Of a stretch of 64,000 bases of DNA, positions 44,700 to 64,000 are shown in pieces. Both the position numbers and the translations under genes were made by a program. The notes below the pieces were generated by a model, which saw only the letters and a list, made by a program, of their open reading frames with translations, searched no databases and was not told where the DNA came from. Numbering within the stretch: the first letter of the stretch is position 1; every line of letters starts with the position of its first letter. The DNA comes from an uncultured Poribacteria bacterium (GTDB lineage Bacteria > Poribacteria > WGA-4E > WGA-3G): positions 3,410,492-3,474,491 of the forward strand of contig OX638351.1 in assembly GCA_951813565.1 (NCBI GenBank). Reading direction: 5' to 3'.

Positions 44700-47246
44700 T
44701 TAGGGATTTACATTCCAGATGAGGACAGTACCATCGTCACTTCTACTGCCGAGGGATTTCCCATCTGGACTGAACGCGATACTTCTAACCCAAGCTGTAT
44801 GACCGGTCAGTGTTTTCTTGTGCTTACCGGTATGTGGGTCCCATAAGTTGATGTTACTCTCAAAACCACCGCTTGCAAGTGTTTTGCCATCTGAACTAAA
44901 CGCTAAATCAAACACACGATGCGTCGGTTTGGTGATCTTCATCTTGGTTTGCGCAGTATCAATATCCCACAAGAGGATGATTTCGCCACCCCCGATTGCG
45001 AGGGTCTTACCATCTGGACTGAACGCGAGTCCGCACCAAGCACTATCTATCCGCCAATCTACAATATCATTTCGCAACGCATTATCCAAATCAAGTATAT
45101 TCTTTATCTCACCAGTATCTGTATCCCATACGGGAATAGTATTATCTTCACTACTTGTGGTAGCGACAAATCTACTATCCGGACTAAATGCTATAGCAAA
45201 AATATCTTTTTGATGACTGGATAGGACAAACTTCTCTTCACCTGTGAACATATCGCATAATCTGAGCAGATTGTCATCTAATGCAATTGCGAGTGTATTT
45301 CCGACGGGACTGAGTTTCAAACTATGGTTATGCCATTCATATTTCGTCGGTAACATTTTGCGCTCACCTGTGTTTGCATCCCATAAGTGCATACAATACT
45401 CACCCGATTCACCACCATCTCCCCATGCAAGTATTTTTCCATCAGGGATACACTTAAGATTTTGTATTTCACCGTTTAACATCGGATCCCTAAACTCATT
45501 GTCCGTTTTGATGAGTTCTCCTGTGTGTGCATCCCATACACGGATAGTACCATAGCCATAAGCAACTGTAACAGTCTGTCCATTAGAAGTGAAAGCAAAA
45601 GATTCCGTAGATCCGTTATGTCCATTGATAGCATAGTCTTTCGGGTTACCTGTATGTGCATCCCAGAAGCGGATGAGACCATCGCCTCTTCCACTCGCAA
45701 GTGTTTTTCCATCCGGACTAAATGCTAAACTGTAAAAGTCTGATTTGTGTTCTGTAAGTGTTAGTTTACCTTCACCTGTATGTGCGTCCCAAAGACGAAT
45801 TTTATTTTCTCCGTGTGAAGAACTCGCAAGGGTATTACCGTCAGGATTAAACGCTAAGCGTTTAACAGCCCCTGAATGTCCAGAGAGCTTAATCTTCAAT
45901 TCGCCTGTATTTAAGTCGTTAATGTAAATACTATTGTCTTCCTCTGTTAAAGCATTGCTGACAGCAAATGTATTCCCAACAAGATTGCATGCAATTCTAT
46001 GTTCATAATTAGTTGGCTCTGAAATTGTTTGCTTGTGTTTTCCTGTGATCACATTCCAGAGTGAGATTTCTGCGTCCATACTGCCACAATAAATAGTCTC
46101 TCCATCCAGACCGAATGCCAAGTCTTTGATTATTCCAGAATAATCTTTAGTGAGTGTATTCTTAAGTTCACCAGTGACTGCATCACAAATATGGATAGTA
46201 TTTCGATATCCGCACGCAAGGGTTTTTCCATCTGGACTGAATGCCAGACCTGGTGCCCTAATTGTAAAAGAACTTAAGGTCTTATCCGTTGGCTCAATAA
46301 CTTTTTTATAGGAACTTGTTCTTCTATCCCATAATAGAATTGTACCATCCATACTTCCACTGGCTATGGTGCATCCATCCGGACTGAATGCAACGCTGGA
46401 AACTTCACTCTGATGCTCAGTTAGCAGAGAGATTTCTTTATGGGTTTTCACATCGTAGAGCCAAATACCGATACTACTTGCAACTGCCAGAATTGTACCA
46501 TCGGGAGAATACTGTAGCTCCTGTATCGTACCTTTTCCGAGACGTGCTTTAGCATCTTTAGGCAGGTTCCATTGCATAGAATCTTGTGTTAAGTTGTTTT
46601 CCATTGTTTTGATTCCTTTTGGTAAACCAAGGTCTTTGTTCCTATCAGAGATAGTACTACTTCTAATTTGATATAACAAATCAGGTATTGTTTCTATGTC
46701 AACAATAATTCGTAGACGATTTCGAGCACGTTGAAGTCTACTTTTGACAGTGTTCGGAGACACACTCAAAAACTTTCCAATCGCTTCACAACTCATTTCT
46801 CCGAGGTAGTGGAGGATTATCACCGTGCGTTCGCTCTCCGATAGCATTTCCAGAAGATAATCTACTATTTCACGACGAAACTCAGCAGATGCTTCTTCAC
46901 GCTGTTCTGCAATATAATTGGCAAAAGCGGTTTTTTCGAGTGCCTCTTCACTAATGGTTTCCAGTGATTGCATCGCCAGTTTCTTCTTTCGAAACCATGC
47001 TGTGCAACGTCGGTCAGCGATAACATAGAGCCATCCTATAAACTGACTTGGATTTTCCAGCGAAGCAAGTTTTTTGTGCGCTTGAACGAAAGTGTCTTGT
47101 GTAATTTCTTCAGCGATGTGGAAATCACCGATTTTCCGCCATGCAAAAGCATGGATACGTTTTTGGTGTTTTCTGAACAAATCGCTGAAAGCATCTTCGT
47201 CACCAGACAGTATATTTTGAATTAGTTCAATGTCGTCTCTTTCCAT
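44700..47246 (-). CDS. ECF sigma factor domain fused to a WD40 beta-propeller (no TM segment)
   Basis: N-terminal 190 aa is an ECF sigma: region 2 ITQDTFVQAHKKL...FIGWLYVIADRRC and region 4 LSESERTVIILHYLGEMSCEAIGKFLSVSPNTVKSRLQRAR. More than 12 WD40 repeats follow, starting with the LPKDAKARLGKG motif. Confidence 0.85.
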   Translation of the reverse strand: MERDDIELIQNILSGDEDAFSDLFRKHQKRIHAFAWRKIGDFHIAEEITQDTFVQAHKKLASLENPSQFIGWLYVIADRRCTAWFRKKKLAMQSLETISEEALEKTAFANYIAEQREEASAEFRREIVDYLLEMLSESERTVIILHYLGEMSCEAIGKFLSVSPNTVKSRLQRARNRLRIIVDIETIPDLLYQIRSSTISDRNKDLGLPKGIKTMENNLTQDSMQWNLPKDAKARLGKGTIQELQYSPDGTILAVASSIGIWLYDVKTHKEISLLTEHQSEVSSVAFSPDGCTIASGSMDGTILLWDRRTSSYKKVIEPTDKTLSSFTIRAPGLAFSPDGKTLACGYRNTIHICDAVTGELKNTLTKDYSGIIKDLAFGLDGETIYCGSMDAEISLWNVITGKHKQTISEPTNYEHRIACNLVGNTFAVSNALTEEDNSIYINDLNTGELKIKLSGHSGAVKRLAFNPDGNTLASSSHGENKIRLWDAHTGEGKLTLTEHKSDFYSLAFSPDGKTLASGRGDGLIRFWDAHTGNPKDYAINGHNGSTESFAFTSNGQTVTVAYGYGTIRVWDAHTGELIKTDNEFRDPMLNGEIQNLKCIPDGKILAWGDGGESGEYCMHLWDANTGERKMLPTKYEWHNHSLKLSPVGNTLAIALDDNLLRLCDMFTGEEKFVLSSHQKDIFAIAFSPDSRFVATTSSEDNTIPVWDTDTGEIKNILDLDNALRNDIVDWRIDSAWCGLAFSPDGKTLAIGGGEIILLWDIDTAQTKMKITKPTHRVFDLAFSSDGKTLASGGFESNINLWDPHTGKHKKTLTGHTAWVRSIAFSPDGKSLGSRSDDGTVLIWNVNP

Positions 47247-47285
47247 CAGAAACCTCCATAATCAATTTATGCTTACAATAATAGG

Positions 47286-47315
47286 TGACGCGATTTTACT
47301 GTGGATGGGTTGCAA
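47286..47315 (-). promoter_or_regulatory. conserved upstream motif, candidate ECF-type promoter (TTGCAACC-N15-CGCGTCA in gene orientation)
   Basis: The same motif with identical spacing is found upstream of the paralogs ending at 50220 (motif 50261..50290) and 51410 (motif 51450..51479). Flanking sequence ATTTTTGCAACC...GTAAAATCGCGTCA.CT.TTATTGTAAGCAT is conserved in all three. Confidence 0.45.
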
Positions 47316-62727: not shown

Positions 62728-62794
62728 TTGAATATGAACTCCTTTAAAGATTATGCAGCAGATGAAACTGTAGGCTATGCTAAAAAAATTATCA

Positions 62795-64000
62795 TTATTG
62801 CACATCCCACAGCAGAATCGTACTATCCCATCCTGCTGTGGCAAGTGTCCGACCATCTGGGGAATATGACATTAACCAAACGTCCTGTATATGCCCACCG
62901 AAAGTTTGCCGTAATTCACCTGTGCGCGTATCCCAAATTCGAATTTTATCGTCCCTATGAATGCTGGCAAAGGTAAGACCATTTGGTGAGTAAGACAAAT
63001 TTCTCGCCTTTGTCTCTGGTGTAATAATCTTATACGGTTCATCAGCATCCATATTCCAGAATTGAATTTTCCCATCCATATCTATATTTACAAAGGTTTC
63101 CAAACCATGTGAAAAAGAAACTGCGTGTCCAGAAATTGTTTTGACAGCCTCTCCAGTGTTAACATTCCAAAATTGGATTTCCGCATCGTTTGTGCTCACA
63201 AGTGTTTGTCCGTCCGGTAAAAATGCCAAAGTTCTGACATAATCCTCTTTCCATGTAAGTTCTTTTAGGTTTTCGCCAGTAGCGGCATCCCATATACGGA
63301 TGGTCCCGCGCTTGTCTCCACTTGCCAGTGTTTTCCCATCAGGACTAAACGCAACTGATGAAATGCCGTCCTTATGTCCCACGAAAATCTGTCCGTGTTT
63401 ATCTGTCTTTATATCCAGAAACCATATCGTATTATTTCTGCCATCTCCACAAGCGAGCGTCTTACCGTCCGGTGAATACGCAAAGCAATCCATCCTCTTT
63501 GGGACTGAACAGACAGTTTTCATCAATTTTCTCGTTTGCGTATCCCATAAATGTAATCTATTGTCAGAACTTAGGATTGCAAGAATTTCACCGTTTGGGG
63601 AATACGCCATTGAGCTTGTAAACATCTCGGAGTATCCTGTCCGAATTCGCTGTGGGGAACCAGTGGTAACATCCCAAAATCGAATTGTCCCGTCCCTATG
63701 TGCGTTTGCCAATGTGCTTCCATCTGGAGAGAAAACTATATGATCGGTAGTATTTGGCGAGCTTTCAATGGATTTGAGACGTTCACCTGAAGTAACATCC
63801 CAAAACTGTATCACATCGTCTTCATAATTATTACTAACCAGTGTCTTTCCATTTGGATTGAAGACGACTGCATTAACACCCTCGGAATCAGTAGTTGCTG
63901 TGAACGTAGCCTTTAGCTGACCAGTATGAGTATTCCATAACCGGATTGTTCCATCATCACATCCACTTGCCAGTATGTCGCTGTCTGGAGAGAAAGTTAT
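62795..64000 (-). CDS. WD40 beta-propeller repeat protein, 5' end beyond window
   Basis: Reading frame is open on the minus strand from the window edge (…ITFSPDSDILASGCDDGTIRLWNTHTG…) through 62795. The ORF-track start at 63814 is an internal GTG. Confidence 0.75.
   Translation of the reverse strand: MTFSPDSDILASGCDDGTIRLWNTHTGQLKATFTATTDSEGVNAVVFNPNGKTLVSNNYEDDVIQFWDVTSGERLKSIESSPNTTDHIVFSPDGSTLANAHRDGTIRFWDVTTGSPQRIRTGYSEMFTSSMAYSPNGEILAILSSDNRLHLWDTQTRKLMKTVCSVPKRMDCFAYSPDGKTLACGDGRNNTIWFLDIKTDKHGQIFVGHKDGISSVAFSPDGKTLASGDKRGTIRIWDAATGENLKELTWKEDYVRTLAFLPDGQTLVSTNDAEIQFWNVNTGEAVKTISGHAVSFSHGLETFVNIDMDGKIQFWNMDADEPYKIITPETKARNLSYSPNGLTFASIHRDDKIRIWDTRTGELRQTFGGHIQDVWLMSYSPDGRTLATAGWDSTILLWDVQ

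Follow-up and report, generated by a model that had tools for sequence, protein, structure and literature searches.

The window, a stretch of 64,000 nucleotides from an uncultured Candidatus Poribacteria bacterium, contains nine WD40 open reading frames (g1 to g9), all in the same orientation on the minus strand, with seven of the nine lying within 18 kb. All nine gave Pfam WD40 matches (E values of 1e-60 to 1e-138) and PF00400 scores of 197 to 446 bits, for a cut-off of 27, which bears out the number of genes given in an initial sequence-only reading of this DNA. These genes, two genes located between or next to them, and the regions encoding the conserved entry motif of the propellers (motif regions) are as follows.

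g1: 1840..3555, minus strand, signal peptide and WD40 propeller, degenerate motif region at 3334-3471 (Pfam WD40 1.4e-138)
sigma310: 43544..44476, minus strand, class-B ECF sigma factor without propeller (Pfam and NCBIfam sigma-70 r2/r4)
g2: 44700..47246, minus strand, ECF sigma domain (aa 1-181, 46704-47246) followed by a 14-blade propeller, motif region at 46449-46583
g3: 47509..50220, minus strand, ECF sigma domain (49678-50220), membrane helix (aa 220-238, 49507-49563), linker and 14-blade propeller, motif region at 49165-49299
g4: 50394..51410, minus strand, derived from a sigma-helix-propeller gene by in-frame deletion, blades 7-14
g5: 51838..53733, minus strand, signal peptide and 14-blade propeller, motif region at 53524-53658
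CBM9-like exported protein: 53942..54640, minus strand, Pfam CBM9_1 8.8e-6, inside the g7-g6-CBM9-g5 block
g6: 54822..56726, minus strand, signal peptide and 14-blade propeller with the AIARFGKG variant, motif region at 56499-56633
g7: 56770..58671, minus strand, signal peptide and 14-blade propeller, ORF open to 58740, motif region at 58462-58596
g8: 60787..62727, minus strand, signal peptide and 14-blade propeller, ORF open to 62856, motif region at 62503-62637
g9: 62795 to beyond 64000, minus strand, propeller gene, C-terminal 401 aa, N terminus outside the window

For g7 and g8, translation probably begins downstream of the long ORF starts listed, at MKTRL (58671) and MKIICL (62727), respectively. 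The N-terminal modules first proposed, namely, a signal peptide, an ECF sigma domain, an ECF sigma domain with a transmembrane segment, or a truncation, were all found on a single propeller family, but signal-peptide-like N termini were present in five genes, g1 and g5 to g8, rather than six. They were assigned by a hydropathy scan and pattern only, with values of 1.6 to 2.5 within the first 65 residues of the listed ORFs (2.44 at aa 5 in g1) and a recurrent …AFAQ|(D/E/N) pattern. The C-terminal tails fall roughly into the two classes described, …(I/V)WE(I/V)(N/Y)P and …LLWDL(T/S)xxVxxx. No sorting domain was found in the window proteins, whose chains stop at the last blade. The best match of g9 was a 596-aa sigma-less protein (80% identity, locus L008), and g9 also matched the C termini of 911- to 913-aa sigma-helix-propeller proteins at 52-58%.

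The AlphaFold2 model of g3 contains 56 strands, i.e., 14 blades, with pLDDT values of about 80-95 in the propeller; residues 185-311 are of very low confidence, and the membrane helix was left unmodelled. The best fold match was 2YMU, a 14-repeat Nostoc propeller (34% identity, Foldseek E value of 1.8e-51), and ciliary 7+7 WD40 proteins also matched, with target TM-scores of 0.80-0.83. The earlier idea of 7+7 tandem propellers is thus supported, and the family unit is predicted to be a 14-blade (7+7) WD40 double propeller. The first strand of the g3 model spans residues 318-324 (AKARLSK) and the last one residues 895-900. In this model, the conserved entry motif corresponds to an N-terminal cap in which AKAR(L/I)(G/S)K forms the first beta-strand, and the chain ends right behind strand three of the last blade. 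The first strand would provide the missing fourth strand of that blade, in a "velcro" ring closure deduced from the count and order of the strands, not from the model coordinates.

A six-frame search of the window with the regular expression LP..A[KI]AR.[GS]KG yielded exactly six matches, at the propeller starts of g2, g3, g5, g6, g7, and g8, whereas far less than one match would be expected by chance, by our estimate, in 128 kb of translated sequence. The motif had been described in every WD40 gene; it is exact in these six, degenerate in g1 (LLEGVKARIGRG), and deleted in g4, where the search of the window did not find it. The N terminus of g9 is outside the window, so that the motif ascribed to this partial gene could not have been seen. 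At least 589 motif-encoding stretches were confirmed in species-representative genomes. The best 80 of these, the only ones for which names were given, all come from Poribacteria or unnamed MAGs, and their consensus, FAQ(D/E)YT(Q/R)WGLPEGAKARLGKG, directly follows the signal peptide. The motif was present in 106 of 120 protein matches of g3 and in 89 of the top 150 cluster representatives. In tandem proteins it returns at the start of every 14-blade unit, at internal positions of about 700-800, and the unit was also found behind caspase, trypsin-like, and reprolysin-like domains. The WxLPEG segment ahead of the first strand is conserved as well. Solved WD40 proteins of the PDB matched the motif profile only from position 17 upward, which is the ordinary blade part. 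The motif is therefore not generic, but it does not single out the paralogs of the window either: it characterizes the poribacterial propeller family as a whole.

The genes g2, g3, and sigma310 have the sigma2-sigma4 core of ECF (group 4) sigma factors, with Pfam Sigma70_r2 and r4_2 matches above the cut-offs and TIGR02937 scores of 93.6, 99.8, and 92.6 bits, respectively (cut-off, 42.9). A single hydrophobic 19-mer was found in g3 (aa 220-238, KD of 2.15), while no membrane helix precedes the motif in g2 (maximum KD19 of 1.11). Pfam detected no anti-sigma domain in residues 182-330 of g3, and there is no site-1 or site-2 protease gene nearby. The best matches of g3 were Candidatus Poribacteria proteins; more than 113 of them are homologous over the full length (60-96% identity). 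Mean identity in this family was 0.86 for the helix, 0.79 for the juxtamembrane segment, and 0.72 for the propeller, the most variable part of the sigma fusions. Of the sigma cysteines, C81 is invariant (115/115 sequences) and C153 is found in 95 of 115. The linker in locus L076 is ortholog-like to that of g2, and g2 represents a conserved class without membrane helix. Elsewhere, homologs of sigma310 occur in direct fusion with a motif-bearing propeller, and an upstream element is common to sigma310 and these class-B fusions. Both g2 and sigma310 are absent from a close relative, L002 (indel).

A 27-mer, GCAACC-N17-CGTC, was searched for as a regular expression over the window and 82 loci. Its occurrences in the array are as follows.

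Candidate promoter of g2: 47287..47313, minus strand, GCAACC-N17-CGTC, ending 40 nt ahead of the ATG
Candidate promoter of g3: 50262..50288, minus strand, GCAACC-N17-CGTC
Candidate promoter kept upstream of g4: 51451..51477, minus strand, GCAACC-N17-CGTC

In addition to g2, g3, and g4, sigma-fusion genes of 13 loci are preceded by the 27-mer at 35-76 nt from the start, and in L054, L011, and L014 the distance is larger (134-147 nt). The 27-mer accompanies 15 of the 23 class-A sigma genes. In the window and the 82 loci, it never lies directly upstream of signal-peptide genes, and those that do not adjoin a sigma fusion have no common promoter motif. The conservation of the element and its resemblance to ECF -35/-10 elements make it a candidate conserved ECF-like promoter, with a slightly long AAC-to-CGT spacing of 18 nt.

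Several members of the family are damaged. The odd tail of g1 is explained by a frameshift near its 3' end, as its class-2 tail (VLLWDLTVDNAD) is found in another frame.

g1 out-of-frame remnant: 1682..1855, minus strand, last 1.5 blades and class-2 tail …GGIVLLWDLTVDNAD*, from three-frame translation against the orthologs in L025 and L082

The promoter, the 5'UTR, and sigma codons 1-21 survive in g4 and are followed, from the junction AFS|PDG, by blades 7-14; its residues 18-338 align with residues 584-904 of g3-type proteins. g4 is thus a sigma- and helix-deleted relic that has retained the promoter of a sigma gene. The g5 ortholog of L002 has a nonsense codon (TGG>TAG at W108), and many split ORFs were seen among the compared loci. 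Taken together, the frameshift, deletion, nonsense codon, and split ORFs suggest that part of the family may be decaying, although some of the breaks may be MAG assembly errors.

The genes of the array had been viewed as a diversifying, tandemly amplified set. However, the window paralogs are only 37-55% identical to one another, whereas orthologs of g3, g5, g6, g7, g8, and g9 elsewhere show 51-85% identity, the L002 matches (92-100%) apart. By protein matches and a rough neighbor-joining tree of propeller domains, each paralog belongs to its own orthologous clade with members from other genomes. The rough tree interleaves the N-terminal classes, which suggests that the modules were gained or lost repeatedly. 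Gene order is also conserved on a small scale, for g7-g6-CBM9-g5 and for a sigma fusion followed by a g8 ortholog. Orthologs of g8 in L003-L009 and L015 (64-84% identity) usually lie just 3' of a sigma-helix-propeller gene, and the CBM9-like protein adjoins family genes in L015, L020, L035, and L060 (58-65% identity by tblastn). g6 starts 43-52 nt after g7, so that the two are probably cotranscribed, and the start of g8 is 67 nt downstream of g9. Two or more co-oriented family genes were present in 49 of 79 loci, and in 11 loci the gene immediately following a sigma fusion is a sigma-less member. Pairwise whole-gene dN/dS values were 0.17-0.30 against species-level orthologs and 0.23-0.50 against the near-identical relative. 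dS against the close relative was uneven, at 0.065-0.09 for g3, g4, and g7 and 0.003-0.02 for g5, g6, and the flanks; together with the presence of g2 here but not in the relative, this hints at recombination or turnover. Overall, sequence comparison indicates that the members of the array are old, belong to a large family, and did not arise by recent diversifying amplification.

A transposable element had also been reported in the array.

TnpB-only IS200/605-type element: 59346..60720, minus strand, tnpB at 59444-60556, in the g8-g7 intergenic region

The element is real, with Pfam OrfB_IS605 and Cas12f TNB zinc-ribbon matches and subterminal hairpins, and a second copy at 27547-28918 (92% identical) fixes both of its ends. 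Its site is intergenic, between g8 and g7, and no gene is disrupted by it.

The closest known kind of protein is the planctomycetal ECF57 sigma-WD40 group (e.g., WP_015250107.1 of Singulisphaera acidiphila), with a sigma2-sigma4 core, a long WD40-like C-terminal extension, several copies per genome, and one conserved cysteine each in sigma2 and sigma4 (PMC8999054, PMC7826278). The sigma fusions of the window share the WD40-like extension on an ECF core, and C81 and C153 recall the ECF57 cysteines, by description and not by aligned position. They come from another phylum, and most poribacterial members have a helix between sigma and propeller, which would place the propeller outside the cytoplasm, unlike the cytoplasmic protein interaction proposed for ECF57. 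Exported paralogs, cap motif, and promoter are absent from the descriptions of ECF57 (PMC8999054, PMC7826278). The sigma/anti-sigma fusions IutY of Pseudomonas putida (ECF243) and SCO4117 (ECF52), which are activated by cleavage, combine a sigma factor, one membrane helix, and an extracytoplasmic sensor in one polypeptide and serve as the working model for g3. Their sensor is FecR-like or carbohydrate binding instead of a propeller; g3 has no recognizable anti-sigma domain or zinc finger, and its cleavage is putative. The Npun_R6612-type cyanobacterial protein (2YMU) has 14 WD40 repeats and is the best structural match, but it lacks the W.LPxxAKARxGKG cap, a signal peptide, and a sigma module, and the motif profile matches its ordinary blades only. 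Finally, WD40 and further eukaryote-like repeat proteins have been reported to abound in Poribacteria, many of them carrying a signal peptide or a sorting domain (Kamke et al. 2014, PMC3909097), which agrees with the resemblance to such repeat expansions initially noted. The phylum, the domain, and the frequent signal peptides are the same; in the passages searched, that paper only counts Pfam WD40 domains and does not contain the word "sigma," so that neither the 14-blade unit and its cap motif nor the sigma fusions and the gene order are treated there.

The explanation that we favor, with some reservation, is that of a cluster of old double-propeller members of a large Candidatus Poribacteria family, with a closing first strand, exported members, and one-component ECF fusions. 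The signal-peptide members (g1 and g5 to g8) would be exported. The sigma fusions would be one-component ECF signaling proteins transcribing their own genes from GCAACC-N17-CGTC. In the helix class, a periplasmic propeller would act as the sensor and tether sigma at the membrane, from which it may be freed by regulated proteolysis, by analogy with other sigma/anti-sigma fusions. Exported paralogs that follow a sigma-fusion gene at a distance of 39-219 nt (in the window g9 then g8, if g9 is a fusion) would be cotranscribed with it, which suggests that they are outputs or partners of the circuit. The helix-less fusions (g2 and class B) could not sense the periplasm, and hence no single mechanism would hold for all fusions.

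Other readings were weighed against this one. The exported propellers might be mainly eukaryote-like effectors or adhesins that bind putative sponge-host or prey proteins, the sigma fusions being an unrelated reuse of the domain. The poribacterial source, with its reported abundance of WD40 and other eukaryote-like repeat proteins, many with signal peptides or sorting domains (PMC3909097), would fit, as would the signal peptides of five window genes, a motif-bearing cluster containing members that NCBI names T9SS sorting-domain proteins, and the propeller being the most variable part within the sigma-fusion family. Nevertheless, we consider it unlikely, as the window proteins have no sorting domain to support export past the periplasm, their conserved position next to sigma fusions favors a functional link over independent reuse, and whole-gene dN/dS values of 0.17-0.30 give no arms-race signal. 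That the array is a recent local amplification under diversifying selection, providing a variable receptor repertoire, is very improbable and already largely refuted. The presence of nine paralogs in one orientation (seven within 18 kb), the uneven dS, and the hint of turnover from g2 speak for it, but they are outweighed by the divergence of the paralogs, each in its own orthologous clade, by the conserved gene order, and by dN/dS well below 1.

The motif itself could be a recognition signal rather than a structural strand, e.g., one on which a protease, a chaperone, or an export factor of the periplasm would act just after signal-peptide cleavage. Closure strands are usually far less conserved than AKARxGKG, the motif lies 5-10 residues past the predicted signal-peptidase site in most members, and WxLPEG ahead of the strand is also conserved. 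However, it is kept in helix-less sigma fusions, in which the propeller is necessarily cytoplasmic, and at the internal positions of tandem proteins, and AlphaFold places it as a confident beta-strand inside the propeller; there is little chance that this reading is correct.

Returning to the double-propeller cluster with one-component ECF fusions, a more speculative and rather improbable extension is that a sigma-helix-propeller protein and the exported propeller encoded just downstream form a new cell-surface signaling pair. The free paralog would bind the tethered propeller as a coreceptor or decoy and gate proteolytic release, sigma would drive both genes from GCAACC-N17-CGTC, and the many copies would be parallel insulated channels. 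The shared motif as a putative propeller-closing strand is a tidy family-level result rather than a new kind of system. What is new here is the candidate promoter of the sigma-propeller genes, the origin of g4, the helix-less class represented by g2, the frequent order of a sigma fusion followed directly by an exported paralog, and the frameshift of g1.

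The nine WD40 propeller ORFs of the window were analysed together with an adjacent ECF sigma gene:

1840-3555, minus strand: g1, WD40 propeller gene with a degenerate motif
43544-44476: sigma310, 310-aa ECF sigma gene beside g2
44700-47246, minus strand: g2, sigma-propeller fusion
47509-50220, minus strand: g3, sigma-helix-propeller fusion
50394-51410, minus strand: g4, shortened propeller gene
51838-53733, minus strand: g5, propeller gene
54822-56726, minus strand: g6, propeller gene
56770-58671 (likely start), minus strand: g7, propeller gene
60787-62727 (likely start), minus strand: g8, propeller gene
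62795 to beyond 64000, minus strand: g9, partial propeller gene

A six-frame search of the window with the regular expression LP..A[KI]AR.[GS]KG returned exactly six matches, in g2, g3, g5, g6, g7 and g8, where the motif always opens the propeller. g1 has a degenerate version, LLEGVKARIGRG, g4 is devoid of the motif, and the N-terminus of g9 lies outside the window, hence was never visible. The motif, which the sequence-only reading had placed in every WD40 gene, is thus carried intact by six of them. Hydropathy supported signal-peptide-like N-termini in five genes (g1 and g5 to g8) of the six proposed, placed a single membrane helix at aa 220-238 of g3 and indicated none in g2. ECF sigma models were matched above cut-offs by g2, g3 and sigma310, and no NCBIfam family model was matched above cut-off by g4, g5 or g8. 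The C-terminal tails form two classes, roughly as described earlier. A frameshift close to the 3′ end of g1 leaves the final 1.5 blades and class-2 tail intact in another frame (1682-1855), which points to a pseudogene or to an indel of the assembly. Split family ORFs were present in many loci of other genomes, and some of these breaks may be assembly errors.

The best matches of g3 were Candidatus Poribacteria proteins, including more than 113 full-length homologs of about 905-915 aa with 60-96% identity, often several per contig; the motif was present in 106 of the 120 listed matches. We compared a 45-residue profile of the motif region (alignment A1) with 1.84 billion cluster representatives. 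The resulting 73,182 matches are an inflated number, because ordinary blades also match and scores are summed, and they were rejected as a family size. Of the best 150 representatives, 89 had the motif, most often behind a signal peptide, near residue 30; sometimes it came behind a sigma domain and helix, near residues 300-350, and in other cases it was located near 700-800. Across species-representative genomes, at least 589 stretches were confirmed, and the best 80 of these, whose consensus is FAQ(D/E)YT(Q/R)WGLPEGAKARLGKG, all came from Poribacteria or unnamed MAGs. In solved WD40 structures, bacterial 2YMU, PkwA and TolB among them, only profile positions 17 and above are matched, so the motif is no general feature of WD40 proteins. 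Given the motif-bearing stretches in other genomes, it is not private to the window array either. Rather than marking this paralog group, it is the hallmark of a family, at least within Poribacteria.

From 115 sequences, AlphaFold2 gave a g3 model that was confident over the propeller (pLDDT about 80-95) and contained 56 strands, i.e., 14 blades, in support of the earlier guess of a 7+7 arrangement. Its best fold match was 2YMU, a 14-repeat Nostoc propeller, and 7+7 eukaryotic double propellers also matched (target TM-scores 0.80-0.83). The first strand comprises residues 318-324, AKARLSK, and the protein ends just past strand 895-900. Since strand arithmetic leaves the last blade of g3 with only three C-terminal strands, we infer that the motif strand would supply the fourth and close the ring. 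A structural role fits the repetition of the motif in tandem proteins, where every 14-blade unit begins with it, its retention in cytoplasmic fusions devoid of a membrane helix, and its place after other domains: caspase (Peptidase_C14), trypsin-like and reprolysin-like peptidase domains precede the motif-led 14-blade unit in cluster representatives P0155, P0254, P0245 and P0196. A relationship with the membrane-coat-like proteins of PVC bacteria was rejected, as the propeller proteins have no alpha-solenoid part.

The sigma fusions fall into three classes. Class A with a membrane helix, to which g3 belongs, consists of proteins about 893-917 aa long that have the motif near residue 315-327. 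Class A without the helix is represented by g2, whose linker has a homolog in one L076 gene. Class B fuses a different sigma type straight to the propeller, and the motif is found near residue 210-213. The sigma domain of sigma310 is of class B but has no propeller, an unrelated tail of ~110 aa taking its place, and sigma domains of its kind are fused directly to motif-bearing propellers in other Poribacteria. Mean identity in the class-A alignment was higher for sigma2 (0.87), sigma4 (0.90), the helix (0.86) and the motif (0.85) than for the propeller (0.72). C81 is invariant in class A, and C153 is present in 95/115 sequences.

We searched for conserved elements upstream of these genes. Roughly 110 nt are homologous upstream of g2, g3 and g4, and a 27-mer, GCAACC-N17-CGTC, is located 35-76 nt before the start of these genes and of sigma-fusion genes in L001-L004, L006, L007, L009, L010 (twice), L013, L015, L017, L061, L064 and L076. 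In L054 it is found 147 nt ahead of the nearest long ORF downstream, whose start falls inside the sigma gene. It was never directly upstream of signal-peptide genes in the loci or the window. Class-B genes, including sigma310, have another element, TTTTTAAACC, followed by a ~20-nt spacer and CTCTTTATATTAAAAC; sigma310 keeps this class-specific element as TTTTTAAACC…CTCT(T/A)TATATTAAA. Judging from their conservation, both elements are putative autoregulated ECF promoters. k-mer and regex searches upstream of 68 signal-peptide-type genes found no shared promoter, only the ribosome-binding site AAAGGAG. AAC-N19-CGTA upstream of g5 was dropped as a candidate ECF promoter, as its spacing differs and it is not conserved. 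Scans of 44-64 kb for sigma-70 promoters (59 sites vs 48.8±6.7) and terminators (18 vs 14.5±3.8) gave chance levels.

g4 retains the class-A promoter and 5′UTR. The opening 21 codons, MKKSDTELNHKILSTHEVAFS, correspond to sigma N-termini (11/21 identical to g3, nearer to the L003 type) and run through AFS, joined to PDG, into a blade whose alignment with g3-type proteins begins at residue 584, which makes g4 an in-frame deletion derivative having lost sigma, helix and blades 1-6. In L011 (~1737-1870) and L014 (~1896-2031), a propeller gene without sigma is preceded by a class-A promoter and a sigma remnant ORF, MHNNDVELINRILSGDGLQ*. Here sigma and helix were lost a second time, in an event similar to that of g4 but independent of it.

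The array had been described as diversifying and tandemly amplified. The window paralogs share 37-55% propeller identity and have their own orthologs elsewhere: 85% for g3 in L001, 83% for g6 and g7 in L062, 84% and 80% for g8 and g9 in L008, and 51-53% for g5 in L079 and L064. Gene order is also conserved, with the g7-g6 pair found again in L062, L035, L029, L020, L060 and L046, a CBM9-like gene adjoining family genes in L015, L020, L035 and L060, and at least two co-oriented family genes in 49/79 loci. Pairwise whole-gene dN/dS was 0.17-0.30 against orthologs in other loci and 0.23-0.50 against the near-identical relative L002 (GCA_021295735.1). A rough NJ tree recovered these orthologous clades and interleaved the N-terminal classes. 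Together, these data argue against recent amplification and gene-wide diversifying selection, and the interleaving supports repeated module exchange or loss. Of the earlier interpretation, module swapping is thus real, whereas recent diversifying amplification is not supported. Relative to L002, g2 and sigma310 are extra segments in the window, and the L002 ortholog of g5 has TGG>TAG at W108.

dS against L002 was uneven across 47509-58792, at 0.065-0.09 for g3, g4 and g7 and 0.003-0.02 for g5, g6, the CBM9-like gene and housekeeping flanks, suggesting recombination with diverged alleles or paralogs. The g5-g4 intergenic region differs by an indel of ~185 bp (51502-51711; 210 bp in the window vs 25 bp in L002) holding a G+C-rich hairpin, GGGCGGG…CCCGCCC. 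The TnpB insertion reported in the array is present at 59346-60720; this TnpB-only IS200/605-type element has a second copy at 27547-28918, in opposite orientation and 92% identical over 1375 bp, with the hairpin CCCCT(G/A)CCTTTAGGTAG(G/T)GG at both ends. REP-like palindromic intergenic elements at 3712-3733, 47401-47421 and 53822-53842 have the sequences GCGCAATGAATTGCGCGACTAC and GGTT(A/G)GGAAACCGC(A/T)CCTACC, which recur in 11/82 and 21/82 poribacterial loci, respectively. A 2427-aa ORF at 16814-24097, with LysM, Peptidase_M28 and FtsX-like permease matches, is unrelated to the propeller family.

In 11 loci a family gene without sigma follows a sigma fusion at a distance of 39-219 nt, and g8 orthologs usually come directly after a 911-913-aa sigma-helix-propeller gene. 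g9 ends 67 nt upstream of g8; the closest g9 match (L008) is sigma-less, so g9 itself need not be a fusion. The conserved upstream elements suggest that the fusions are autoregulated, and the downstream exported paralogs may be co-transcribed with them. The g1 and g5-g8 proteins are predicted to be exported. By analogy with IutY and ECF52, the sigma domain of the helix-containing class would be tethered at the membrane and freed by proteolysis. PMC8999054 and PMC7826278 describe a Planctomycetes group, ECF57, with WD40 extensions and about 5.3 copies per genome, and propose cytoplasmic protein interaction as its mechanism, which probably applies to the poribacterial fusions without a helix. 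In the literature searched, we found no paper linking Poribacteria with ECF-WD40 fusions.

Poribacteria are uncultured, abundant, sponge-associated bacteria, and to our knowledge their many WD40 proteins have so far merely been counted as 'eukaryote-like' domains. The abundance of these proteins is already known (PMC3909097). According to our analysis, a large share of the poribacterial WD40 proteins belong to one definable family, a 14-blade unit with a diagnostic N-terminal cap, and the cap motif can serve as a family-model seed for annotation. The promoter motif opens the way to regulon prediction, and the pair of sigma fusion and exported paralog is testable in a heterologous host. In multi-copy ECF sigma factors with a recognisable putative promoter, the 14-blade unit probably acts as the sensor or regulatory domain. 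To the sigma-WD40 fusions of Planctomycetes, these proteins add a second phylum and a form that spans the membrane.
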